From contig JAHOYT010000054.1 of the NCBI GenBank assembly GCA_019038645.1, positions 4,365-68,364 of the forward strand: a stretch of 64,000 nt of DNA, in the 5' to 3' direction. Both the position numbers and the translations under genes were made by a program. Positions within the stretch are counted from its first letter, which is position 1. Each line of letters starts with the position of its first letter. This DNA comes from Bacteroidales bacterium (GTDB taxonomy: Bacteria; Bacteroidota; Bacteroidia; Bacteroidales; UBA12077). Under the pieces are notes generated by a model that was not told where the DNA came from, searched no databases, and worked only from the letters and a program-made list of their open reading frames with translations. Positions 36,862 through 58,283 of this stretch are shown here, piece after piece.

Positions 36862-37065
36862 TTATCCTCCGCTTACCAGATGAAGCACTATTACATTATC
36901 TCCCTCATTGATTTCAAAAATATCGTAAGCATCTTTTTTAATCAACTTGCTATTAACTTTTATAACCAACATTTTAAAAGTGTAGTTCTTAATTTGAAGA
37001 ATTTCAGAGATAGTTATTTTTTCTCTATCAAAAGATTCCTGCCGGTTATTTAGTATGATTTCCAT
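36862..37065 (-). CDS. thiS: ThiS/MoaD-family sulfur carrier protein
   Basis: 67-aa ubiquitin-like protein ending in GG. Confidence 0.9.
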   Translation of the reverse strand: MEIILNNRQESFDREKITISEILQIKNYTFKMLVIKVNSKLIKKDAYDIFEINEGDNVIVLHLVSGG

Positions 37066-37649
37066 TATTTCTTACTTAACAAAATTTCTAAAACAGTATT
37101 CGCCTGCATATTTGCCACTATCCCAACTCTTGGTGCCAATGGTGGATTATTATCAGCAATTTCTGATTTTTCATCGCCGCAAATATATAAATTTTCGTTT
37201 TGTCTGAATTTTATAGCGTTATTTTTTCCCCAACCAGCCATGCCAGAGCCAATAATAACTGGTATTTCAGGTAATTCTGATAAACATGTTTCAATCAACA
37301 TCTTTTTCATTTCTGCTAAATCGAATGCTTCTACAATAATGTCACAATCTTTATAAATCTCAACAATGTTATTCTCATTAAGTTTAATATTATTGTCAAT
37401 AACATTAATTTCAGGATTTATTCTTTTAATATTTTCTTTTAATGCATCCACTTTTCTAAGACCGATCTGATCTTTAAAGAAATACTGGCGATTAAGATTC
37501 GATTCATACACAATATCAAAATCAGAAATAATGATTTTACCAATTCCAACTCTTGCCAGAGCCACAGCACAATTCGAACCTAATCCTCCTGCTCCTGCAA
37601 TACCAATGGTGTAATTTTTAAGTTTTGTTTTTATTTCTTCGAAAGTCAT
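37065..37649 (-). CDS. thiF: Sulfur-carrier adenylyltransferase ThiF (short form lacking Zn-binding CxxC)
   Basis: GAGGLGS, DFD.V..SNLNRQ, EAFD, GSGMAG, APRVG. Confidence 0.9.
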   Translation of the reverse strand: MTFEEIKTKLKNYTIGIAGAGGLGSNCAVALARVGIGKIIISDFDIVYESNLNRQYFFKDQIGLRKVDALKENIKRINPEINVIDNNIKLNENNIVEIYKDCDIIVEAFDLAEMKKMLIETCLSELPEIPVIIGSGMAGWGKNNAIKFRQNENLYICGDEKSEIADNNPPLAPRVGIVANMQANTVLEILLSKK

Positions 37650-37652
37650 AAT

Positions 37653-38351
37653 TTATGGTTTTAAAAAGACCTTACTCATAAATGATAAAAACTGTTTTGT
37701 GCCTCCTCCTTTCTTAATAATTTTCAATGTATTTTCATCATTGGGTTCAAAGACGGAACCAAAAAGTAATTTAATATTACGATACTGAAACATTTCGCCA
37801 TTAAGTATTGTTGACGGACCCAAAGTGTAAATATCGCAATTATCTCTGGTTGCATTAACCAAATCTAAGAATGTTTTATTAAAAACTGAAGTTGAGGAAA
37901 GAATCAAGGCATCAGCCTTTTCAATTTCGATTAACTGTTCTGACATATTAGTTAACTTATTATCTTCTTCAGCTTTATCAAATATTTTTAAATCTATTTT
38001 TTCATTTTCGAATTTTTCAACCAACGATCGAAAAAACCCAATCATTACAATTTTATTATATTTTTTAAAATCGATTTTGTTAAAAATATCTATGGTTGTA
38101 TCATATTGATTATCATAATTATAAGTGGCATTAAAATACGCATTTAAAACAATCCTGTGCTGAATATTTTTTAAATCAGGAATCTTTAAATCCCGGATAT
38201 CAACTTTTATATAATTATCGAGTGTAGCACAAACACCAATATTTCCATTCTTTAGAATAACTGCTACATATTTTGCTCCACAAACAATATTCTGGATGTT
38301 ATTAATGTCGGTTCCGTATTTTTCGAAAAAGTATTCTAAGGGTTCTTGCAT
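37653..38351 (-). CDS. DUF364/Rossmann-like domain protein
   Basis: GVCATL, A..NA, VMIGFF, SSTSVFNKT, LGPST pattern typical of DUF364. Confidence 0.72.
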   Translation of the reverse strand: MQEPLEYFFEKYGTDINNIQNIVCGAKYVAVILKNGNIGVCATLDNYIKVDIRDLKIPDLKNIQHRIVLNAYFNATYNYDNQYDTTIDIFNKIDFKKYNKIVMIGFFRSLVEKFENEKIDLKIFDKAEEDNKLTNMSEQLIEIEKADALILSSTSVFNKTFLDLVNATRDNCDIYTLGPSTILNGEMFQYRNIKLLFGSVFEPNDENTLKIIKKGGGTKQFLSFMSKVFLKP

Positions 38352-38476
38352 ATTTTTAAATCTTGAATGCTAAAATATTTAACAAATTTACAATTAATTC
38401 TTTCAAATAATTAATATAATTTGGAATGCTAATATGTTCATATACAAACCAGTAATTGTATTTCTAAATTCATTCC

Positions 38477-38500
38477 CGATATGCACAATATAACATATTG
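38477..38500. promoter_or_regulatory. ModE-like operator between aor and the DUF364-thiF-thiS operon
   Basis: CGATATGC-N8-ACATATTG, same architecture as 12618-12641. Confidence 0.7.
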
Positions 38501-38511
38501 ATTTAAGTCAT
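38498..38511. promoter_or_regulatory. CRP/FNR-like site upstream of aor
   Basis: TTGAT-TTAA-GTCAT versus TTGAT-N4-ATCAA; -7 box TAATTTTG at 38542-38549. Confidence 0.4.
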
Positions 38512-38589
38512 ATTATACTTTCAATGCAAACTATAATTTTATAATTTTGAAAGGCTAAAATTTAAAATAAACTTTAAGGAAAAATAGAT

Positions 38590-40743
38590 ATGGATATTCA
38601 AAAAATGAAAGACGCTCACAAGCTTTTAAAAGAGTGGAAATATGAGCTTCGCCCAATCGATAAAGGGTATAATGATCGTACATTGTATGTGAATGTTGGT
38701 TCAAATGAAATTAAGGAGAAACCTGTTCCACAACAAATGAAAGAAAAATTTATTGGTGGAAAAGGATATGGCTTAAGATTATTATGGGATGCTACTGCAC
38801 CTGAAACAAAATGGAACGACCCTGAAAATGAAATCATTATTGCTGGTGGTCCTATTTGCGGTATAACTCAATATTCTGGTACAGGTAAAGCTATTGTAGT
38901 ATCTGTATCTCCGCAAACTAATTCCATTATGGATTCAAACGTAGGTGGTCATTTTGGTCCGTTTTCTAAGTTTGCCGGATTTGATGCTGTTGAGATTCAG
39001 GGAAAATCTGAAAAAGAAGTTATAGTATTTATTGATGGAGTTAATGGTAAAGTTGAGATTTTAGAAGCTCCAGAAGAACCAATTGATAGTCATGTTTTGG
39101 GTGAAGTATTACACGAAATGTATTCTGATGATGAAAAGGACAGAAGAAATGTTTCTGTTGTTTCAGCCGGAACTGCTGCTGATCATTCATTAATTGGAAT
39201 GTTAAACTTTACTTTCTGGGATAATAAACGTAAACTGGTTCGTTTAAAACAAGCTGGTCGTGGTGGAATCGGAACTGTTTTCAGAGATAAAAAAATTAAA
39301 GCATTAGTTTGTAAAATACCTGGTGTAAAGGGTAACTTGAATAATGTTGTTGATATGGAAGCTATCATGGAACGTGGTAAGCGATTCAACAAAGAAATGC
39401 GTGAGCTTGACGATTCGCAATGCGAAATGAAGAGTAAAGGTACAGCTCACCTTACTGGAATAATGAATGATTATGATCTACTTCCGGTAAATAATTTTAA
39501 GTTTGGAAATCATCCGGATGCTCATAAAATTAACGGAGATGTTTGGAAATCATATTTTACACAAGGTGTTCCTGATGGATGTTGGATTGGTTGTAATATG
39601 TCATGTGCAAAAGGTGTTGATAATTACTTATTAAGAACCGGACCATATGCCGGAGATAAAGTAATTGTTGATGGACCTGAATATGAAACAACTTCATCGA
39701 ATGGTTCAATAATGGGTATCTTTAATCCTGATTTTACTATTGAAACTAACTTTTATTGTGATACTTATGGTATTTGTACTATTACTTTTGGTACAATCAT
39801 GGGATTTGTAATGGAATGTTACGAAGCTGGAATTTTGAACGAAGAACGTACTGGTGGATTAAAATTGAACTTCGGTAATGCAGATGATGCAATGGAGGTG
39901 TTACACCAAATGGCAGGTGGCGAAGGATTCGGTAAGATTGCAGGATTAGGTGTTCGTAAAATGAAACAACTGTTTGCTGAAAAAGGATGGGGTGATGCTC
40001 AATTCATGCAAGACATTGGAATGGAAAACAAAGGGTTGGAATATTCTCAATATGTTTCTAAAGAATCATTAGCTCAGCAGGGTGGTTATGCCATGACTAA
40101 TAAAGGTCCACAGCACGACGAAGCCTGGTTAATTTTCATGGATATGGTAAACAACCAGATTCCTACTTTCGAGAAAAAAGCAGAAGCATTGCATTATTTC
40201 CCAATGTTCCGTACCTGGTTTGGTTTAACAGGATTATGTAAATTGCCATGGAACGACGTTGAGCCTGTAAATAATGCAGAAGCTGATGAGCCAGCAAAAG
40301 TACCGGAGCATGTTGACAATTATGTAACTATTTTCAAAGCTGTTACAGGATTAGAATTCGATAAAGAAGAAATGATTACTCAATCGGAAAGAGTATATAA
40401 CTTTCAGCGTATTTTTAATATTCGTAGAGGTTATGGTGTACGGAAAGATGATGCTCAGCCATATCGTGCTGCAGGTCCTGTTACAATAGAAGAATACGAA
40501 TCTAAAGCAGAGCATTATGACAAACAGCTGAAAGAATTAATCGGTGTTGATCCTGCCGGGAAATCTGTTGAGGAAAAGAATGCGATTACAAGAAAATACA
40601 GAGAAGAACAATACGAAAAACTACTTGATGCAGTTTATGCGCGTCGTGGTTGGACATCTAATGGTGTTCCAAAAATTGAACACTTAAAGAATATAGGTAT
40701 GGATCTTCCGGAATTAATCGAAGTAATAAAAGATAAGCAATAG
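38590..40743 (+). CDS. aor: Aldehyde:ferredoxin oxidoreductase family (tungsten oxidoreductase)
   Basis: FIGGKG, DSNVGG, AGRGGIG...KKIKA, CWIGCNMSC, GPEYET, CDTYG, GLCKLPW, YARRGW...G.P. Confidence 0.92.
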   Translation: MDIQKMKDAHKLLKEWKYELRPIDKGYNDRTLYVNVGSNEIKEKPVPQQMKEKFIGGKGYGLRLLWDATAPETKWNDPENEIIIAGGPICGITQYSGTGKAIVVSVSPQTNSIMDSNVGGHFGPFSKFAGFDAVEIQGKSEKEVIVFIDGVNGKVEILEAPEEPIDSHVLGEVLHEMYSDDEKDRRNVSVVSAGTAADHSLIGMLNFTFWDNKRKLVRLKQAGRGGIGTVFRDKKIKALVCKIPGVKGNLNNVVDMEAIMERGKRFNKEMRELDDSQCEMKSKGTAHLTGIMNDYDLLPVNNFKFGNHPDAHKINGDVWKSYFTQGVPDGCWIGCNMSCAKGVDNYLLRTGPYAGDKVIVDGPEYETTSSNGSIMGIFNPDFTIETNFYCDTYGICTITFGTIMGFVMECYEAGILNEERTGGLKLNFGNADDAMEVLHQMAGGEGFGKIAGLGVRKMKQLFAEKGWGDAQFMQDIGMENKGLEYSQYVSKESLAQQGGYAMTNKGPQHDEAWLIFMDMVNNQIPTFEKKAEALHYFPMFRTWFGLTGLCKLPWNDVEPVNNAEADEPAKVPEHVDNYVTIFKAVTGLEFDKEEMITQSERVYNFQRIFNIRRGYGVRKDDAQPYRAAGPVTIEEYESKAEHYDKQLKELIGVDPAGKSVEEKNAITRKYREEQYEKLLDAVYARRGWTSNGVPKIEHLKNIGMDLPELIEVIKDKQ

Positions 40744-41003: not shown

Positions 41004-41387
41004 ATGAGTGATAGAAAACTAAATAACAACAAGCGAATTATAACATTCCTGTTTTTTGTTTTAATAGGAGGAATTATTTTTAATTCCACTTTCTTTCTTC
41101 ATTCTCACAGAACGGCTTGCGGTAAAGTAATTGTTCACGCTCATCCGTTTAATAAAAGTGCCGAAGGCGAAGATTCTTCTTCACAACACAAGCATAATAA
41201 AATCGATTTACAGGTAATATCTTCTTTAAAGTATTTCGTAAGCATAGCTTCATCAGCAGAAATACCATACAATCCTGTTTTGGAAACAGAATTTGTTGAT
41301 GAGCAATTTGTATTTTTAATTTCAGAGAGTATTTCTTTACAAACAGACCGTGGTCCTCCTTTTGATTCTCCATTTATTATAGCTTAA
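41004..41387 (+). CDS. His-rich membrane-anchored leader protein with C-terminal RGPP (DUF2946/CruR-like architecture)
   Basis: One TM segment, HSH...HAHP...HKH, RGPP at codons 116-119; ATG 7 nt after TACTTTTG -7 box. Confidence 0.8.
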   Translation: MSDRKLNNNKRIITFLFFVLIGGIIFNSTFFLHSHRTACGKVIVHAHPFNKSAEGEDSSSQHKHNKIDLQVISSLKYFVSIASSAEIPYNPVLETEFVDEQFVFLISESISLQTDRGPPFDSPFIIA

Positions 41388-41467: not shown

Positions 41468-43837
41468 ATGCGTAGAATTATATATATATTTCTGGCAATA
41501 ACATTTAATATATTTTCAAATAATATAATTGCAAACAATCCGGTCTCAACAGTTAATGGTTCTGTTACAAGTAATGGCGAACAGGTATCATTTGCAACTA
41601 TAATAGTAAAAGGAACAACAATAGGTACTGCTTCAGATGAATACGGGCAGTATAATTTAATTAATATACCTGATGGTAAAATTATTGTTCGTGCTCAGGC
41701 CATTGGTTACAAACCCAAAGAGATAGAAGTGGAAGTTATTACTGCAAAATCGAAACAGATTAATTTTGATTTGGAAGAGGATGTTTTTGGACTTGAACAG
41801 GTGGTTATTACAGCCGACAGAAACGAAAAAAACAGGAAAGAATCATCTGTAATTGTAAACACTTTAACTCCAAAATTATTTGGCATTGCACAAACTGCAA
41901 CATTAAGCGAGGGATTAAATTTTTGTCCGGGATTAAGAATGGAGAATAACTGTCAGAACTGCGGCTTTAATCAGGTTCGTATGAACGGCATGGAAGGGCC
42001 GTATTCTCAGATTCTAATAAATAGCCGACCAATTTTTAGCGGATTAGCAGGTGTTTATGGTCTTGAATTAATCCCATCTAATATGATTGAGCGAATTGAA
42101 GTTGTACGCGGTGGAGGTTCTGCTTTATATGGAAGTAACGCCATAGCAGGAACAATAAATTTAATTTTGAAAGATCCAATCAATAATTCTTATGAAGTGG
42201 CACTTAATAGTGCCCTAACCGGTGTTGGGATTAATGGCTCCGGAAATCCGGCAGAAGATTACAGTGTGAATTTTAATACATCCATTGTTTCAGATGAAAA
42301 TAAAACAGGAGTAGCATTGTATGGATTTTACAGGGATCGCCAACCTTTTGATGTTAACGATGATGGATTTTCGGAATTATCTTTAATAAAAAATAATACC
42401 ATTGGAACACGATTATTTTACCGTCCCGGATATAGAAATAAAATAGCCATAGATTTTTTTAATATCAGAGAAGACAGGAGAGGTGGTAATAAATTTGATT
42501 TACCTAAACACGAAACAGATATTACCGAAGCTGTTGAACATAATATCACTACAGGTGCAATAACTTTTGATCAATTTTTCAGGGAATTTGATTTGTGGTC
42601 GGTATTTGCATCGGGGCAGTTTGTCAACAGAGATTCGTATTATGGTGCATTACAGTCACTTAAAGATTATGGAAGGACCAGCGGATTTACATATACAATA
42701 GGATCACAATACAATGCCAAATTTAAAAATTCAGGTTTGATTTTAGGAATTGAAAATCGGAGAGAAACTTTATTTGATGAAAAACTGGGCTATCCTGATT
42801 ATGAAGGCGCTTATTACGTAGCTGGTAATTTATTTATTCCTCATATTGAGAATACCACAGTTGCTGATCAGGTGTCGAACACTTTAGGTGCATTTGTACA
42901 GTATGAGGTTGATTTAAATAAGTTAAATATATCGGTTGGTGCCAGGTTCGATAATTATTTGGTTGAGGACAGAGAAAATAATGCAACCAAAAAAACAGGA
43001 AATGTAGTAAGCCCAAGGTTAACTTTTAAGTATGATTTTATGGAGTATTTGCAGGCTCGTGTAAGTTATTCTCAGGGATACAGAGCACCTCAGATTTTTG
43101 ATGAGGATTTACATATTGAAACATCAGGTTCCCGAAAAGTTGTTCACACGAATGATCCTGATTTAAAGCAGGAAACAAGCCATAGTTATATGGCTTCATT
43201 AGATTTTAATAAATCTTTTGGTACGATTAATACAAGTTTATTGATCGAGGGATTTTATACTAAACTAAATGATGCATTTGCTAATGAGTATAATAATCCT
43301 GATGCAAACGGAGTGGTTACTTATACAAGGATTAATACCGGTGATGGTGCTTTTGTTCAGGGTATTAATCTGGAATTAAATTTAGTTCCATCAGATATTT
43401 TTTCGTTTTCGGGTGGTTTTACATTTCAAAGTAGTAAATATGAAGAGGAACAGGAATTTAACGAAAAAAACTTTTTTAGAACTCCAAACCAATATGGATA
43501 CTTAACAATTGACTGGGATTTTATGAAGAATATATGTTTATCTGCTACCGGAAACTACACTGGCAGCATGTTGGTTCCTTACTTTGGACCGGAACAAACA
43601 AATCCGGAAGTTGGTGAATTAAGAAAGTCTGGTTCGTTCTATGATATTAGCTCAAAATTAAGCTATGATATAAAAATTAAAGAGAGCAAAGTGCAGATAT
43701 TTGCCGGAATAAAAAACATTTTTAATTCATATCAGAATGATTTTGATTTAGGAATAGAGCGCGATCCGGGTTATTTGTACGGACCCACTTTGCCACGAAC
43801 AGTATATTTCGGAATTAAACTGGGGAATTTATTGTAA
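41468..43837 (+). CDS. TonB-dependent receptor, probably for a metal or metal chelate
   Basis: Signal peptide, carboxypeptidase-like N-domain, plug with ENNCQNCG and IERIEVVRGGGSALYG, C-terminal YGP..PRT.YFG. Confidence 0.93.
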   Translation: MRRIIYIFLAITFNIFSNNIIANNPVSTVNGSVTSNGEQVSFATIIVKGTTIGTASDEYGQYNLINIPDGKIIVRAQAIGYKPKEIEVEVITAKSKQINFDLEEDVFGLEQVVITADRNEKNRKESSVIVNTLTPKLFGIAQTATLSEGLNFCPGLRMENNCQNCGFNQVRMNGMEGPYSQILINSRPIFSGLAGVYGLELIPSNMIERIEVVRGGGSALYGSNAIAGTINLILKDPINNSYEVALNSALTGVGINGSGNPAEDYSVNFNTSIVSDENKTGVALYGFYRDRQPFDVNDDGFSELSLIKNNTIGTRLFYRPGYRNKIAIDFFNIREDRRGGNKFDLPKHETDITEAVEHNITTGAITFDQFFREFDLWSVFASGQFVNRDSYYGALQSLKDYGRTSGFTYTIGSQYNAKFKNSGLILGIENRRETLFDEKLGYPDYEGAYYVAGNLFIPHIENTTVADQVSNTLGAFVQYEVDLNKLNISVGARFDNYLVEDRENNATKKTGNVVSPRLTFKYDFMEYLQARVSYSQGYRAPQIFDEDLHIETSGSRKVVHTNDPDLKQETSHSYMASLDFNKSFGTINTSLLIEGFYTKLNDAFANEYNNPDANGVVTYTRINTGDGAFVQGINLELNLVPSDIFSFSGGFTFQSSKYEEEQEFNEKNFFRTPNQYGYLTIDWDFMKNICLSATGNYTGSMLVPYFGPEQTNPEVGELRKSGSFYDISSKLSYDIKIKESKVQIFAGIKNIFNSYQNDFDLGIERDPGYLYGPTLPRTVYFGIKLGNLL

Positions 43838-50572: not shown

Positions 50573-51841
50573 TTATTTCTTTTTTAATTTGGATTCCAGC
50601 TTCTTTATTTTTCTGGTAAGTTCGTCATTAGTATTCTGAAGTTCAACCATCTGTGTTTCTGATTCTTCTGCCCTTCTTGATGATTCTTCCTGTGTAGCTT
50701 GCAATTCTTCCATATTCTGACGCATTTCTTCTTCCTGAGCCGACATTTCTTCAGCTTGTTGCTGAGTTTTTTCAAGAAGTTCTGAAGTACGCCTGTTTGT
50801 TTCCGCCATATTAAGCGAACTGGCAATACTTAACGATGCCTGTTCAAGAAATTCAATCTGAAATTTTTCGAATAAATTAAACGAAGCAATCTCAATAACA
50901 CCTAATACTTCTTCTTCCATTTTCATAGGAATGAGCAATAAACTGTTCGGATTTGATCCGCCCAGACCACTTGTAATCTGAATATAACTATCCGGAATTT
51001 CTGTTAAATGAATTGTCTGTTTTTCAAGTGCACAATTTCCAACCAATCCTTCTCCCAATTCAAATACTTTTTTAATATATTTTCTTCTGTTAAAAGCATA
51101 AAATGATTGTAACTCCAGAGTAATATTGTTCTGATCATCGCTATTTCTTATAAATATTCCACCCTGATTAGCATTCATGTAGTTTACAATATAACTTAAT
51201 ATCTGATAAGATAATTCAGCTACATCATCCTGTTTTCTTAAAATTTCGTTTAGTTTGGCTAATCCCTCATTTACCCAGGATCTTTTTTCTTCTTCAATAT
51301 GTTTTTCTTCCTGTATTTTAGTTGCTTCCTGAAGCTTTTTTCTCATTTCCATCAACGCTGATCTTAAATGGTCCGATTCACCCAGAAGTTCTATTTCATG
51401 ATCAAGGTTTCCTTCTCCCACTTGTCTGGCAAATTCTGCAGTATCTCTCAGATTATTAATCATTTTTTCCAACGCAATGTTCATTTGGCCTGTTTCGTCA
51501 TTATTTTTCTTAATTTCTTCATTAATTTCAACTGATAAATCACCGTTCGATATTTTCTTTAAAGCGTTGATAGAACCTTTAATAGGTTTTTGTATATATT
51601 TTTTAAAAATTAGGTTTCCCATAAGTAATATTAAATATCCTACTGGAACATACCAAATTAAATACTTAATTCCGTACATACCAATTACAAAGGAGATAAC
51701 TCCAACAAGAAGATTTGTACTGAGTATTGCCATCGCCGATTTGAATATTATCGTTCCACGATATCTTAGCCGGTTAACAACAATACCTAACGGAATAGCA
51801 ACGAAAATCATAAATAAAATAAATACGAATAAAGGATTCAT
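50573..51841 (-). CDS. Membrane HAMP-GAF coiled-coil protein with no output domain
   Basis: Three TM segments from ATG 51841, HAMP-like region, GAF (GEGLVG, LGVIEIAS), QQQAEEMSAQEEEMRQNMEELQATQEE coiled coil. Confidence 0.85.
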   Translation of the reverse strand: MNPLFVFILFMIFVAIPLGIVVNRLRYRGTIIFKSAMAILSTNLLVGVISFVIGMYGIKYLIWYVPVGYLILLMGNLIFKKYIQKPIKGSINALKKISNGDLSVEINEEIKKNNDETGQMNIALEKMINNLRDTAEFARQVGEGNLDHEIELLGESDHLRSALMEMRKKLQEATKIQEEKHIEEEKRSWVNEGLAKLNEILRKQDDVAELSYQILSYIVNYMNANQGGIFIRNSDDQNNITLELQSFYAFNRRKYIKKVFELGEGLVGNCALEKQTIHLTEIPDSYIQITSGLGGSNPNSLLLIPMKMEEEVLGVIEIASFNLFEKFQIEFLEQASLSIASSLNMAETNRRTSELLEKTQQQAEEMSAQEEEMRQNMEELQATQEESSRRAEESETQMVELQNTNDELTRKIKKLESKLKKK

Positions 51842-52060
51842 AAGCTTAGATTTTTGGTCCGTTCCAAAATACGATTTTTTTGACAAAAAGAAAAATCTAA
51901 ATATATAAAGGCTTGTATGTGTTGTAGTTATATTGTTATAATGACTTGCTAAATTAAGAGAAATAAATATACTATTAATCTGCATTCTGTTTCAAATATT
52001 AAACGTTGTACCATTTTATATGTCATATTGTTAATTCAATTTATTCATTATCTTTGGATC

Positions 52061-52435
52061 GTGGTAAAAAATAAATATAGCATATTACCTTTCTTACTTT
52101 TAGCGTGGACTATAATTTTTGCTCACAGTGTTATCCCGCATCATCATTCAGAGAATTTTCATTCCGAATGTAGTCATCACTCCCATGAAACTCATTTTTC
52201 TGAAATGTCAGAAATTCATGATTGTAATCACGAGTGTAATGATCATACCTGCCATTTTCATGTTGATGTTTTAACGAAGGTTTCTGTTGATAATGTTTTT
52301 ATCACAAATAACATAAATACATTTTTAAATAATCTCAACTTTTCAGAATCATATGATAATGGTTTCTTTGTTGATTTTATTTCTAATCAGATACCAAAAA
52401 CCAATCATCTTCGCGGTCCTCCTGTACTTGTTTAA
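52061..52435 (+). CDS. His/Cys-rich leader protein with C-terminal RGPP (DUF6769/DUF2946-like)
   Basis: TM segment then HSVIPHHH, CSHHSH, HDCNHECNDHTCH; ends LRGPPVLV; GTG 4 nt after TATCTTTG -7 box. Confidence 0.8.
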   Translation: MVKNKYSILPFLLLAWTIIFAHSVIPHHHSENFHSECSHHSHETHFSEMSEIHDCNHECNDHTCHFHVDVLTKVSVDNVFITNNINTFLNNLNFSESYDNGFFVDFISNQIPKTNHLRGPPVLV

Positions 52436-52496
52436 TGAGGTTTTCAATTCCAACAAGGAATTTTATTTTTTTCTTTAATCCAAATCTTAAATTATA

Positions 52497-53762
52497 ATGA
52501 GAAAATTCACAGTTGTTCTCATATCAATGGTTTATATAACCATGATGAGTTGTAAACATAATGATGATCATAATCATGATGATCACGGTCATTCACATGA
52601 AGAAGTAAGTGAACATACAGATCATGATAATGAACATGAGCACGAAAAAGAAACAGAAGAACACGCACACGATCATTCAGTTGAAGAGCATAATCAGGAT
52701 GAAGCAGAAGAACATGTACACAATCATACAGATGAAGAGCATAATCAGAATGAAACAGAGGAGCACGATCATAAGCACGAGTATAAAACAGCAAAAATAC
52801 AGTTACAGTCATTTCATCAAATTATTAAAACAAGTGGCGAAATAATAAATTCTCCATCAGAGGAAATTGAGGTTGTAGCAACCAACAACGGAAGAATAAG
52901 CCTTTTTGCCGGTTTGGCAAAAGGTGTTAATGTTAATACTGATCAAATTCTTTTTCAAATATCAGGAGATAATATTATAGATAACAACATTGCTTTAAGG
53001 TATAATACAGCAAAAGCAGATTTTGAAAAAGCAAAATCAGATTTTGAAAGAGCTGAAAAATTGACTAAAAACAATATTATTTCTGAAAAGGAGTACGAAC
53101 AAATTAAACTTGAATATTCAAATACAAAGTACGAATATGAATTAATTGCAAAATCATACAAAAAGGGTAGTGGCGTTGTAGCTTCTCCGTCAAAAGGTTA
53201 TGTGAAAGAGTATTTTGTTAATGAGGGACAATATGTTGAAACCGGACAAAAGCTGGCCGTTATTAATAAACAGAGTAGATTAAGATTGGTAGCTGAAGTA
53301 TCTCAAAAGTATGTTCACAATTTGCCTGAAATAGAATCAGCCACTTTTCTAATTAATAATAGTGAAAAGGCATTCGATACTGAATCATTAGATGGGAAAC
53401 TTATTTCATATGGTAAATCAGTTAATAGTAAAAGCTATTATATCCCGGTAATCTTTGAAATCAAAAATGATAAAGATTTACTGCCCGGTTCTTTTACGCA
53501 GGTTTTTTTAAAAGGTAAAGAGCTGAAGGATGTTATTGTTGTACCTGTATCGGCATTAATTGAAGAGCAAGACAATTATTTTGTTTTTGTTGAAGAAGAT
53601 CATGATAAATTTCAGAAACGACATGTTATTTTAGGTGACAGTGACGGAACAAATGTATTGGTAAAAGAAGGTTTATCTGCCGGAGAAATTATTGTAACCG
53701 AAGGAACATATTTTGTTAAACTGGCAAGTATGTCAAATGAACTTCCTGTACATAGTCATTAA
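52497..53762 (+). CDS. RND efflux periplasmic adaptor (CzcB/CusB-like) lipoprotein with His-rich N-terminus
   Basis: Lipobox MMSC, long His/Glu tract, helical hairpin, SPSKG..V.EGQYV..GQ, VPVSAL. Confidence 0.92.
   Translation: MRKFTVVLISMVYITMMSCKHNDDHNHDDHGHSHEEVSEHTDHDNEHEHEKETEEHAHDHSVEEHNQDEAEEHVHNHTDEEHNQNETEEHDHKHEYKTAKIQLQSFHQIIKTSGEIINSPSEEIEVVATNNGRISLFAGLAKGVNVNTDQILFQISGDNIIDNNIALRYNTAKADFEKAKSDFERAEKLTKNNIISEKEYEQIKLEYSNTKYEYELIAKSYKKGSGVVASPSKGYVKEYFVNEGQYVETGQKLAVINKQSRLRLVAEVSQKYVHNLPEIESATFLINNSEKAFDTESLDGKLISYGKSVNSKSYYIPVIFEIKNDKDLLPGSFTQVFLKGKELKDVIVVPVSALIEEQDNYFVFVEEDHDKFQKRHVILGDSDGTNVLVKEGLSAGEIIVTEGTYFVKLASMSNELPVHSH
52632..52784 (+). repeat. Intragenic 51-bp (17-aa) His/Glu repeat
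   Basis: GAAGAGCATAATCAG at 52683 and 52734; a degenerate unit precedes them. Confidence 0.7.
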
Positions 53763-53779
53763 CATTAAACCTGATAATT

Positions 53780-56700
53780 ATGCTAAATAAAATTATAAAA
53801 TTTTCGCTGGAAAACAGGTTGCTGGTGGTTTTTGGTTCGGTTTTACTGCTTCTGTCCGGAGGATATGTGACATCCAGAATGGAAGTTGATATTTTCCCTG
53901 AATTAACTGCTCCTACAGTAGTTGTTATGACCGAAGCGCATGGTATGGCTCCTGAAGAAGTTGAAAAACTTGTAACTTTTCCAATAGAAACATCAGTTAA
54001 CGGAGCAACGGATATTCGTCGCGTTCGATCTTCATCATCAATGGGCTTTTCCATTGTTTGGGTTGAGTTTGACTGGGGGACAGATATATATAATGCCCGA
54101 CAAACGGTAACTGAAAGGCTTGTGGCTGTTAAGGATCAGTTACCAACACAGGCCGGTGATCCTTTTATTGCACCTCAATCATCTTTGCTGGGAGAAATAA
54201 TGCTGGTTGCCATTACTTCTGATACAAAGTCGCCGATGGAATTACGCACTATCGCTGAATGGAATCTGCGTCCCAGGTTACTTTCAATTGGTGGTGTAGC
54301 TCAGGTTTCAACAATTGGAGGGGAATTTAAGGAATATCAAATATTGGTAAATCCTGACTTAATGAAATATTACAACGTTTCGTTTAGTGAGATTATTGAA
54401 AACAGCCAGTTAATGAACGAAAACGCTACCGGTGGATTTATTGAGCAACATGGTAATCAGTATATGGTTCGGGGAATTATCCGAACAAATAATACAGATG
54501 AGCTTGGGAATGTCGTAATTAAAATGGCTGAAAATTATCCCGTTAAAATCTCTGATGTTGCAAAAGTAAAAATTGGAAGCTCTCCTAAAATTGGTGACGC
54601 ATCGTATCGTGGCGAAAAAGCTGTTATTTTATCAATAACCAAACAGCCTAATGTAAATACAATTGAACTTACAAAAAGTGTAAATGAATCATTGGTTGAT
54701 ATACAGAAAAACATTGGAAATGAAATTCATTTTCATACAGATATCTATAACCAGTCTGAATTCATCAACACATCAATTAACAATGTAAAAAAGGCGTTAG
54801 TTGAAGGGTCTTTTTTTGTGATCATTATTCTTTTCTTATTCCTGATGAATTACAGAACAACTCTGATTTCACTTCTGGCAATTCCGCTTTCGTTATTAGT
54901 TACAATTCTTGTATTAAAAGCGTTGGGATTAACAATTAATACAATGAGTCTGGGAGGGATGGCTATTGCAATCGGCTCTCTTGTTGATGATGCAATTATT
55001 GACGTTGAGAATGTTTACAAACGTTTGAAACAAAACGTAGGATTTGAAACAACACACAGGGAAAAGCCATTAAAAGTTATTTTCGATGCTTCAACTGAAA
55101 TAAGACCTTCAATCATGAATGCTACTATTATTATAATTGTTGCATTTGTACCATTATTCTTTTTAGGTGGAATGGAAGGCCGGATGTTAAAACCTCTGGG
55201 TATATCATATATAGTTGCATTGTTTGCATCACTTGTTGTGGCAATTACTATTACCCCGGTTTTATGTAGTTATTTACTCACTAACGAAAAACGTTTAAAA
55301 AAGCATAAAAAAGGAAGTTGGTTAGAGAGGAAACTGAACAGGTTATATTTTGCCAGCCTAAAATGGGTTTTAAATAAGAAAACTGTCGTTCTAAGTTCCG
55401 CCTTTGCTCTGTTGATATTAGCAGTTGTTGTATTTACCGGATTCGGGAGTAATTTTTTACCACCTTTTAACGAAGGTTCGCTCACGATAAATTTGAATTC
55501 TTTACCAGGGATTTCTCTGGAAGAATCATACAAACTTGGGAAAAAGGCCGATGATATTTTACTTGATATTCCAGAAATAAAATCAGTGGCACGAAGAACA
55601 GGACGTTCAGAATTGGCTGAGCATTCATTTGGTGTAAACGTATCTGAAATAGATGCTCCATTTGAATTAATAGACAGATCCAGAGCTGAGTTTTTGGCTG
55701 ATGTAAGATCACAGCTTAAAACCATAAAAGGAGCAACGGTGGAAGTCGGACAGCCTGTCACACACCGCATGGATCATATGTTATCAGGAACAAAGGCTAA
55801 CATTGCCATTAAATTATTTGGTAACGAATTAAATGAAATGTTCCAGGTGGCTAATGTTATAAAAAGCGAAATTCAGGATATTGAAGGTATAGGCGATTTA
55901 TTTGTTGAACAGCAAATCGAAATTCCTCAGTTAAAGATAAAACCAAAACGTGATATGCTTGCTAAATACGGAATCCCGTTAAATAAATTTATGGAATTTG
56001 TCGATTATGCTTTTGCCGGTGAAAAAGTATCTGATGTTTTTGAGGATGAAAAATCATTTGATCTGGTTCTTCGTTTTGATGAGGAGCATAGAAATTCTAT
56101 TGAGACAATTCAGGAGGCAATGATTGATACACATGATGGCAAAAAAATACCGATTTATTATGTGGCTGATATTACATCATCTTCCGGCCCAAATACTATA
56201 AGTAGAGAAAATGTTCAGCGTAAAATTGTTGTTTCGGTAAATGTTGCTGATCGTGATGTAGGCAGTGTTGTAAAAGATATTATTGAAAGGGTTAATGATC
56301 ACGTTATTTTGCCCGAAGGTTACCGGGTTGAATACGGAGGACAATTTGAAAGTGCTGCCAGTGCTTCAAGAACTTTAACCATAACTTCAATAATTGCAAT
56401 TTTGGTAATATTCCTGATTCTTTTTCAGGAGTTTAAAAGTACAAAATTGGCATGGATTATTTTATTAAACCTTCCGTTAGCAATGATCGGAGGAGTTATT
56501 GCAATCAGGTTAACATCCGGAGTTGTAAGTATTCCTGTTATAATTGGATTTATTACATTATTTGGAATAGCAACGCGTAATGGGATTTTGCTTGTTTCAA
56601 GATACAGAAATATGGCAGAAAAAGGAATAGAGGTATATGATAGAGTTATAAGGGGTTCGCTGGACAGGTTAAATCCTATTCTAATGACAGCTCTTACGGC

Positions 56701-56875
56701 GGCTCTTGCTTTAATTCCATTAGCAATTGCAGGTGATAAGCCTGGTAACGAAATCCAAAGTCCAATGGCGGTTGTTATTTTAGGCGGATTGCTGAGTTCT
56801 ACATTTTTAAACATTTATATTGTTCCGGTAATTTATTTGATAATGCATAATAAGGAGGTGAAAGATGAAAAGTAG
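53780..56875 (+). CDS. Heavy-metal efflux RND permease (CzcA/CusA family)
   Basis: DIFPEL, APEEVE..VT.PIE, GSLVDDAIIDVEN, FLPPFNEG, RLNPILMTA. Confidence 0.95.
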   Translation: MLNKIIKFSLENRLLVVFGSVLLLLSGGYVTSRMEVDIFPELTAPTVVVMTEAHGMAPEEVEKLVTFPIETSVNGATDIRRVRSSSSMGFSIVWVEFDWGTDIYNARQTVTERLVAVKDQLPTQAGDPFIAPQSSLLGEIMLVAITSDTKSPMELRTIAEWNLRPRLLSIGGVAQVSTIGGEFKEYQILVNPDLMKYYNVSFSEIIENSQLMNENATGGFIEQHGNQYMVRGIIRTNNTDELGNVVIKMAENYPVKISDVAKVKIGSSPKIGDASYRGEKAVILSITKQPNVNTIELTKSVNESLVDIQKNIGNEIHFHTDIYNQSEFINTSINNVKKALVEGSFFVIIILFLFLMNYRTTLISLLAIPLSLLVTILVLKALGLTINTMSLGGMAIAIGSLVDDAIIDVENVYKRLKQNVGFETTHREKPLKVIFDASTEIRPSIMNATIIIIVAFVPLFFLGGMEGRMLKPLGISYIVALFASLVVAITITPVLCSYLLTNEKRLKKHKKGSWLERKLNRLYFASLKWVLNKKTVVLSSAFALLILAVVVFTGFGSNFLPPFNEGSLTINLNSLPGISLEESYKLGKKADDILLDIPEIKSVARRTGRSELAEHSFGVNVSEIDAPFELIDRSRAEFLADVRSQLKTIKGATVEVGQPVTHRMDHMLSGTKANIAIKLFGNELNEMFQVANVIKSEIQDIEGIGDLFVEQQIEIPQLKIKPKRDMLAKYGIPLNKFMEFVDYAFAGEKVSDVFEDEKSFDLVLRFDEEHRNSIETIQEAMIDTHDGKKIPIYYVADITSSSGPNTISRENVQRKIVVSVNVADRDVGSVVKDIIERVNDHVILPEGYRVEYGGQFESAASASRTLTITSIIAILVIFLILFQEFKSTKLAWIILLNLPLAMIGGVIAIRLTSGVVSIPVIIGFITLFGIATRNGILLVSRYRNMAEKGIEVYDRVIRGSLDRLNPILMTALTAALALIPLAIAGDKPGNEIQSPMAVVILGGLLSSTFLNIYIVPVIYLIMHNKEVKDEK

Positions 56876-58043
56876 AAGAAATCTGATAATTTCGATATTG
56901 TTTTTTGTTTCGATAAATGCTTACTCACAGTCATTTAATGAAATTTTGGAAACAATTGAGCAGAATAATAAAGAGCTGCAGGCCGGAAATAAATTCCTGG
57001 AAAGTAAAATCTATGAGCATAAACAAAACAATTTACCGGGAGGCCCGTCATTATCATACGGATATTTTCCTGATAATTCTTCGGTTTCAGGAACAAAGGA
57101 AGTTTTTGAGGTAAGTCAGTCATTTCAGATGCCATGTTTTTACAGAAATCAATCGGCGTATTCAAAGTTAATGATTGGAACAGAAGAATTAAATCATTTG
57201 GTATTAAGGCAAAACATATTGAGCGAAGCAAAAAGCCTTTTAACAGAATATGTTTATCTCTTAAAACAGATATCAATTCTCAGCATAAGATTAAAGTTTG
57301 CTGAAGATATTTATAACGCTTATCTGGTTCGGGGTGAATTAGGAGATGTAAATGCTCTGGAAATAAATAAAGCAAAGTTGCATTTACTTCAGGTTCAGAA
57401 ACAAGAGAAAGATTTACAAACTCAATTTTTGGCAATAACAGAAAAACTCATGAATCTAAATGGTGGAGATGATTTAAGCTTAGGAGTAATAAATTATCCT
57501 TTAGAAAATCTGACAGATTTGGACACATTGTTATTTGAAAGACTGGAGTACGATCCGGAATTATTGTATAATCAAAAGGCATTTGAAGCATCAGAAAAGA
57601 GAATAAAAGTTGCTAAAAACCTGCAGTTACCTGAATTTAGTCTGGGTTATGGAAGTGAGACAGTTGCAAATGAGAAATTCAAAGGATTTTTAGTTGGTGT
57701 TTCAGTTCCTTTATGGGGAAGCAAAAACTCAATTCAGCAGGCAAAAGCAGAATCAGATTTTTATGACGTAAATAATAATTTTTTAAGAGAGAAAAGAATA
57801 TCTGAAACAAAAATTCAATTTGAAAAAGTACATTCACTCAAAGAAAACCTGGAAAGTTATGAAACAGTTTTAAGTTCTGTAAATAATGAAGATCTTCTTA
57901 ATAAGTCGTTAGAATTAGGGGAAATATCAGTAATTGAATTTTTTACTGAGATGTTTTATTTCTATGAAATTTATGATGATTATTTATTACTGGAGAAAGA
58001 TTACTATCAGGCTTTAACGGAATTGTATAAATACAAACTATAA
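56865..58043 (+). CDS. TolC/CzcC-family outer-membrane efflux protein
   Basis: Signal peptide, helical repeats, GVSVPLW, GEIS; overlaps the RND gene. Confidence 0.88.
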   Translation: MKSRRNLIISILFFVSINAYSQSFNEILETIEQNNKELQAGNKFLESKIYEHKQNNLPGGPSLSYGYFPDNSSVSGTKEVFEVSQSFQMPCFYRNQSAYSKLMIGTEELNHLVLRQNILSEAKSLLTEYVYLLKQISILSIRLKFAEDIYNAYLVRGELGDVNALEINKAKLHLLQVQKQEKDLQTQFLAITEKLMNLNGGDDLSLGVINYPLENLTDLDTLLFERLEYDPELLYNQKAFEASEKRIKVAKNLQLPEFSLGYGSETVANEKFKGFLVGVSVPLWGSKNSIQQAKAESDFYDVNNNFLREKRISETKIQFEKVHSLKENLESYETVLSSVNNEDLLNKSLELGEISVIEFFTEMFYFYEIYDDYLLLEKDYYQALTELYKYKL

Positions 58044-58094: not shown

Positions 58095-58283
58095 TTATCT
58101 TTCACAGGATTCAGTTCCGCATCCACAACCAATTCCCTGGTCTTTTAATTCCTTAGGATGATTATTGTGACACGAACCTCCGTGAAACTCACTTTTTTTG
58201 GTGAAAATCAATCTGACTGACAATGCTAATACTGCAATCAAAACTAATACAAAAGTTAGTATAAGTAATTCTAAAATTGGCAT
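58095..58283 (-). CDS. Small single-TM protein with Cys-rich C-terminus
   Basis: Hydrophobic N-terminus, F.GGSC and GIGCGCG..SC; fills an intergenic gap. Confidence 0.7.
   Translation of the reverse strand: MPILELLILTFVLVLIAVLALSVRLIFTKKSEFHGGSCHNNHPKELKDQGIGCGCGTESCER

Follow-up and report, generated by a model that had tools for sequence, protein, structure and literature searches.

The closest studied systems are two arrest leaders of metal operons, and they differ in sign: metal relieves the stall of CruR and enhances that of CutF (PMC9973294; PMC9426467; bioRxiv 10.1101/2025.02.05.636593). CutF, from Rhodobacter capsulatus, is a metal-ON leader (bioRxiv 10.1101/2025.02.05.636593), and the arrest of CruR was shown in PMC12992588. 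Since the RNA predictions for relatives make the stall the ON state, as it is in CruR and CutF alike, any reversal of logic must lie in the response of the peptide to metal.

Both kinds of ORF have been surveyed in silico. Ozturk 2023 found OEP, ACR_tran and HlyD_D23 genes downstream of CutF-like ORFs, to which Bacteroidota contribute a large share (PMC9973294). In Fujiwara 2025 (PMC12992588), RGPP and RAPP are the two motifs that gave robust arrest in several contexts, and the source data of that paper hold 620 RAPP against 148 AAPP uORFs before RND adaptors (16-fold), 50 RAPP uORFs before CusA/CzcA transporters (28-fold) and at least 45 occurrences of DUF6769. A metal-ON arrest leader before an exporter, which the sequence-only reading of this DNA had put forward, is not a novelty: CutF has already been published as metal-ON, and arrest-type uORFs before RND genes are a published in-silico class. 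The class and both polarities are known, as are DUF6769 RAPP ORFs before RND adaptors in the 2025 source data, and the published class and polarities limit the surprise of the present locus. What is new here is predicted, namely a leaderless start in the family and, in relatives, a stall-opened helix that would hide the start of the next gene. We found in the literature no experimental study of a DUF6769 leader, and no experimentally tested arrest-peptide metal sensor that comes from Bacteroidota or controls an RND pump; no relevant main text names DUF6769, and the published CutF-like and RGPP lists may include the subfamily. Because the family occurs widely across the order and B. thetaiotaomicron carries one of its members, the determinant of metal-ON versus metal-OFF behaviour is testable in a tractable gut bacterium.

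The leader, its family and the efflux operon

The leader heads an efflux operon in the window, that is, in the whole stretch of 64,000 nucleotides that was analysed (Table 1). The elements that had been picked out from the sequence, a GTG 4 nt past a −7 box, a transmembrane segment, a dense His/Cys cluster and RGPP three residues from the stop, were all confirmed. The N-terminus is basic and is followed by a hydrophobic helix (Kyte-Doolittle 19-mer of residues 7-25, 2.03), a candidate, as judged by hydropathy and AlphaFold, for the signal peptide of the CutF-like rule set or for a signal anchor. In the AlphaFold model (pLDDT 51) the confident part is helix 5-23 alone, and beyond this helix no folded domain was predicted, at that low confidence. 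Of residues 22-67, 14 are His and 4 are Cys. RGPP is found in four ORFs of this genome, three of which are ORFs of 60-200 aa with the motif within the last 20 residues, and it occurs 0 times in ORFs of at least 250 aa.

Table 1. Features of the leader locus and of the first RGPP leader, in positions of the window.
Feature	Position	Strand	Remarks
First RGPP leader, different family	41004-41387	+	127 aa; RGPP 8 residues from stop; before TonB-dependent receptor 41468-43837
Bacteroidota −7 box TATCTTTG	52049-52056	+	4 nt ahead of start codon; predicted leaderless mRNA
Leader ORF, divergent DUF6769-like protein	52061-52435	+	124 aa; GTG start 52061; TAA 52433-52435
N-terminal hydrophobic helix, residues 7-25	52079-52135	+	Predicted signal anchor or signal peptide (hydropathy)
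His/Cys cluster, residues 22-67	52124-52261	+	H22-x3-P-H-H-H and C64-H-F-H conserved; putative metal site
RGPP arrest motif (predicted)	52412-52423	+	3 residues from stop; 54 residues past Cys64; RAPP in many homologues
Weak hairpin AATTCC-AACAA-GGAATT	52446-52462	+	Putative element; U-rich tail TTATTTTTTT at 52463-52472
RND periplasmic adaptor (HlyD_D23)	52497-53762	+	Lipoprotein-type N-terminus; 21 His within first 100 residues
CusA/CzcA-family RND transporter	53780-56875	+	TIGR00914 over cut-off; TM4 (presumed) AIGSLVDDAIIDVEN; HRMDH motif
Outer membrane efflux protein	56865-58043	+	

Judged by the rule set for CutF-like ORFs (Ozturk 2023, PMC9973294), the leader is shorter than 150 aa (124), has PP within its last 15 residues and is followed within 1000 nt on the same strand by metal genes, the adaptor gene lying 61 nt past the leader stop and the RND transporter scoring over the TIGR00914 cut-off. 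By the RAPP/RGPP arrest-peptide criterion (Fujiwara 2025, PMC12992588), it is a small uORF of secretory or membrane type with RGPP near its C-terminus. It resembles CutF in its putative N-terminal export segment, in a Cys/His site that presumably binds metal, and in being the first gene before metal-defence genes. It differs in that CutF has an EF-P-sensitive PPP where this leader has RGPP, that CxxxC/CXXC of the CutF type is not the conserved site here, the family keeping H-x3-PHHH and CHFH, and that the stem-loop over the downstream initiation site of CutF, which is melted by the stalled ribosome, has its counterpart in a helix predicted in some relatives but not in the window. The likeness to CruR (Bp2923 of Bordetella pertussis, DUF2946; PMC9426467) lies in R(A/G)PP three residues from the C-terminus, in the fixed spacing of sensor and motif (CXXC to RAPP in CruR) and in an exported-type uORF at the head of a metal operon. 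However, 45 residues intervene in CruR against 54 from Cys64 to Arg here, a 162-nt intergenic region and a TonB importer stand in place of 61 nt and an exporter, and the leader has no DUF2946 match; Pfam DUF2946 was matched at E up to 0.1 neither by the leader nor by any of 32 homologues, and no conserved CXXC like that of DUF2946 and CruR is seen in the close-homologue alignment of the family. CzcI of Cupriavidus metallidurans is, by description, a similar small exported protein before a czcCBA-type operon, but it has no C-terminal proline motif. Profile links place BT_RS10320/BT_2037 of B. thetaiotaomicron (PMC12992588, Fig. 4B) in the same family, and it shares motif position and neighbour class; it is of the DUF6769 RAPP form, whereas the leader of the window is sub-cut-off, of the RGPP form and has a predicted leaderless start.

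Against DUF6769 (PF20558) the leader scored 14.5-15.1 bits (E 0.035-0.055) and did not reach the gathering cut-off of 27 bits. Among 32 close homologues 21 matched DUF6769 at E up to 0.1, and scores over the cut-off were obtained for P0031 (36.7 bits; 51% aligned identity) and for the copy of the same-genus genome G051 (29.7). Since the leader stays below the cut-off and close homologues rise above it, we call it DUF6769-like. No NCBIfam model matched either leader of the window.

The leader is under purifying selection, with a dN/dS of 0.21-0.37 in eight of eight pairwise comparisons with relatives. LRGPP, CHFH and H-x3-P-x-H are invariant in 32/32 close homologues while the spacer diverges, and Cys64 is the only invariant Cys, C55-x3-C59 being variable. 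For a survey of the family, the transporter was used as query on 56 family genomes and gave 32 non-self matches; one at a contig edge was left out, and of the 31 fetched, 27 had upstream DNA and 4 ended too early. The leader heads the operon at all 27 loci with upstream DNA, with R(G/A)PP and the Cys-to-Arg spacing kept. When the window is included (28 loci), the motif is RGPP at 19 and RAPP at 9, the codons in use for it number 5 for Arg, 7 for Gly/Ala and 3-4 for Pro, and the Cys-to-Arg spacing is 53-56 throughout and exactly 54 at 22. A profile search for relatives matched 373 clusters; among the best 150 of these matches 144 end in R[AGS]PP, and in a non-circular count the same ending was found in 22 of 27 matches whose alignment ended ahead of the motif. 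Across the order the leader family was matched in 111 of the 401 genomes searched. RAPP or RGPP is present at 84 of 91 order-level loci examined, and the genes 3′ of these leaders are efflux genes at 85, TonB receptor genes at 2 and without a hit on short flanks at 4. The distribution of RGPP, the invariance of LRGPP and the dN/dS values indicate that the leader is a selected peptide signal beyond chance.

Some members of the family depart from this pattern. Seven order-level leaders have variant endings at the same position, RGSP (L053, L100, L126), RPPP (L101, L121, L138) or LAPP (L107), and are candidates for further arrest motifs. L102 and L130 lie ahead of TonB-dependent receptors, not pumps, and form a natural pair for comparing polarity. 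At L047, L051, L082 and L084 an ORF of 145-155 aa with a basic start (M-S/N/K-K-K/R-K-L) lies between the leader and the efflux genes.

The best solved relatives of the RND transporter are ZneA and CusA, and we take AIGSLVDDAIIDVEN to be at the position of the TM4 signature. In a comparison of short motifs alone, its HRMDH (at 662) and EHSFGVN resemble HRLDH and HAEGVH of the HME5-type pumps NieA/NrsA; NieA is a predicted nickel pump of this type (PMC7060636). Our guess from the His-rich leader site and the HME5-like pump is that the metal may be divalent, for example Ni, Co or Zn. In the 212-nt gap ahead of the other CzcA gene of this genome (C24:19472-23824) there is no leader. A 62-aa membrane peptide with a C-terminal Cys/His cluster, CHNNH...CGCG...C (58095-58283, −), which is encoded convergently to the efflux operon, gave no Pfam or NCBIfam match.

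Promoter and upstream neighbourhood

With a distance of 4-5 nt from −7 box to start site (PMC6847099), the 4-nt gap between box and GTG predicts a leaderless leader mRNA; such mRNAs are uncommon in the phylum, where 5′ UTRs under 10 nt make up about 3.7% (PMC7366714). A −7 box at this 4-nt gap is found at 23 of 28 family loci by a strict and at 27 of 28 by a relaxed definition, compared with 16 of 2366 ORFs of the genome. Elsewhere in the order a leaderless-type box is present at 18 of 91 loci, which makes it a trait of the window's family. Neither BT_2037 nor BT_2038 has a primary start site in the Theta-Base table.

When the 28 loci were compared without gaps, conservation was confined to A/T-rich positions and the −7 box, with no conserved regulator box, and no DNA-binding regulator was found among the 27 nearest upstream ORFs (of 37 listed) from 24 family loci. 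As had been read from the sequence, no MerR/ArsR regulator or two-component system adjoins the operon; a sigma-54 two-component pair lies 2.7 kb upstream. Divergent from the leader is the gene of a HAMP-GAF coiled-coil membrane protein (50573-51985, −; true start probably near 51841), which has no kinase or DNA-binding domain and is syntenic at 13 of 24 family loci.

Proposed metal response and output of the leader

The ORF is very probably an arrest leader of some polarity. The explanation that we prefer, with roughly even confidence, is that it is a cis-acting metal sensor whose stall switches the efflux operon ON and that excess metal prolongs the stall as in CutF, this polarity being favoured because it is the plainer reading for an exporter. 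Motif invariance, the interchange of RGPP and RAPP, the fixed spacing and the position ahead of the operon support it, as do the order-level RNA predictions below and the lack of a DNA-binding regulator among the upstream ORFs examined. In such a mechanism the N-terminal helix would bring the nascent chain into the Sec translocon, and once the ribosome had paused at Pro-Pro, the tunnel and the translocon would be spanned by the 54-residue spacer, its length setting the His/Cys cluster at the periplasmic side, where bound metal might hinder release. The stalled ribosome may keep the downstream start region open, as the helix predicted in many relatives suggests, or protect the transcript; at the window, translation, termination, Rho or stability are candidate routes of output.

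At seven family loci (L014, L015, L018, L019, L021, L022, L026) the last codons and stop of the leader are predicted to pair with the next AUG in a helix of 10-15 bp. Covariation in this helix was not above shuffles (184/500), 9 pairs being invariant. For the order-level RNA set 67 of 91 loci were used, 24 being dropped because they had no motif, no credible start or a gap of more than 200 nt. At these 67 loci the arrest-site tail paired with its cognate next start region at a mean of −7.7 kcal/mol and with non-cognate ones at −5.85 kcal/mol (0/20000 permutations), while a segment 30-66 nt upstream of the arrest site gave p 0.11, one just upstream of the motif gave a smaller cognate excess and ordinary gene pairs gave none (p 0.24). 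Cognate pairing beat shuffles of its own sequence at 18/67 loci against 10/150 controls. In these predictions a stall footprint opened the next start region by at least 2 kcal/mol at 27 of the 67 loci and closed it at 1, against 17 and 11 of 200 controls, the loci being related, hence non-independent, and the controls coming from one AT-rich genome; among family loci, opening was seen at 6/26 and closing at 1/26. In this window the switch helix is not predicted: the stall shifts the opening energy by 0.2 kcal/mol, and the leader-tail duplex (−6.7 kcal/mol, rank 14/28) is no better than non-cognate pairs. Since the phylum has no Shine-Dalgarno sites, the predicted helices of relatives, unlike the stem-loop of CutF, cover the start codon itself or the A/U-rich stretch ahead of it; this suggests a route for leader control without such a site. 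The RNA predictions for the family would fit a stall that is the ON state. The seven helix loci also share an unannotated gene between leader and adaptor; its product, a His-rich lipoprotein some 80 aa long, has a conserved PEQE(S/G/N)F motif and, at the C-terminus, an HD repeat.

Metal-induced folding may release arrest, and under the CruR polarity, which we consider unlikely for this leader, the stall would again be ON but metal would fold the His/Cys domain, pull the chain and free the stall, so that scarcity of the sensed metal turns the operon ON. In that case the pump would be no plain detoxifier of that metal and might expel competing metals in starvation or move a metal complex outward. 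The exact RGPP/RAPP motif and the fixed spacing are CruR features, and loci over the DUF6769 cut-off precede the RND subfamily of the window (56-61% identity, same TM4) at 11/11 complete RND genes. In B. thetaiotaomicron, BT2038-40, which lie behind the DUF6769 RAPP ORF BT_RS10320, rise 2.5-3.3-fold when iron is depleted and 4.4-6.5-fold during colitis; in the same data the CusA/CzcA operon BT3968-72 also rises and two other CusA/CzcA operons fall, and the main text and tables do not name the leader (PMC10434189). This expression is not what simple metal-ON control predicts; it is ambiguous and keeps the CruR polarity alive. The fold changes are small and come from one study, a chelator may raise other metals, and BT3968-72 rises too. 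Moreover, BT2039 is a presumed orthologue of the window's pump, and the pump itself scores as a CusA/CzcA exporter. For PG0063-65 of P. gingivalis no metal-response data on these genes were found in the literature. Somewhat less likely still is the wider proposal that DUF6769-like leaders are metal-released arrest peptides which, without Shine-Dalgarno sites, switch RND 'heavy-metal efflux' ON in metal scarcity by unmasking the start codon; if it were true, the pump would serve the metal-starvation physiology of gut and oral Bacteroidales, not plain detoxification.

The 'opposite logic' suggested in the sequence-only reading could also arise by an inverted RNA output. At low metal the ribosome would be held at RGPP and the hairpin with its U tract would end or weaken transcription; metal would free the ribosome, which on reaching the stop would disturb the hairpin or a post-stop pairing and allow read-through. 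The hairpin is present and weak, as had been described, but it is of ordinary strength (−3.9 to −4.5 kcal/mol, a value matched in about half of 161 ordinary intergenic regions from the genome) and its sequence is not conserved among relatives. Consistent with release as the ON state, it begins 10 nt past the leader stop and has 7 U in 8 nt, a hairpin with at least 6 U in 8 nt being found in 10/161 of the control regions; the intergenic hairpin is stronger than its shuffle mean, with varying sequence, at 22/28 family loci. Pairing between the post-stop GAGGUUU and the region from −15 to −9 has a probability of 0.52 under the stall constraint and of 0.00 with a ribosome at the stop, and TransTermHP lists a terminator just past BT_2037. 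Against this, most homologous hairpins have no U tract (at least 5 U at 8/28) and begin 10-30 nt past the stop, at or beyond the reach of a terminating ribosome, there is no coverage drop at the BT_2037 terminator, and the stall closes the start region at just one locus in either RNA set. We regard this output as quite improbable. A sigma-70 promoter/terminator scan, ill-suited to this phylum, called no terminator at the hairpin. An anti-terminator in which the RGPP codons pair with the hairpin was rejected, the hairpin having a probability of 0.93-0.97 under all three ribosome states. The start codon of the adaptor gene is itself covered by a hairpin (probability 0.92-0.99), which is not special, ranking at the 71st-76th percentile of start regions in the genome.

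It is very unlikely that the product works in trans as a periplasmic accessory of the pump that is anchored in the membrane and binds metal, whether CzcI-like or a chaperone, with RGPP timing export or being incidental. A His/Cys-rich exported-type protein inside a metal operon is what such a role predicts, and CzcI has been placed among CutF-like proteins although it has no proline motif. This would leave unexplained the invariant R(G/A)PP with its synonymous variation, the fixed spacing, the first position and the avoidance of RGPP in long ORFs, and the low-confidence model (pLDDT 51) offers no folded domain past the helix. Least probable is a leader that monitors export or membrane-insertion capacity, as SecM and MifM do, or some other signal from the envelope, the His/Cys cluster playing a secondary part, for although a hydrophobic N-terminus with a RAPP-like motif is the anatomy of Sec/YidC monitors and all downstream genes encode envelope proteins, the His and Cys residues are invariant and the linkage to metal-type RND genes is near-exclusive.

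Other RGPP leaders of the genome

The leader before the TonB-dependent receptor (Table 1) had been thought to be the 'same device' as the one before the pump. An RGPP leader does stand at both places; 'same' is too strong, since the two belong to different sequence families, with no significant similarity between them (BLASTP E 0.38). A third RGPP leader on another contig (C54:18062-18517, −) has an H-x-H...HAHP pattern like that of the leader at 41004, and it is followed by genes for a porin-like protein, a ZnuA-family protein and two permease-like proteins. The suggestion that leaders stand on both import and export is borne out by these positions, before a TonB receptor gene, before porin-like, ZnuA and permease-like genes, and before the present pump. 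Genes for an aldehyde ferredoxin oxidoreductase, ThiF and DUF364 (37065-40743) lie immediately ahead of the first leader and the TonB receptor gene that follows it, and they may hint at the metal that is imported by this receptor.
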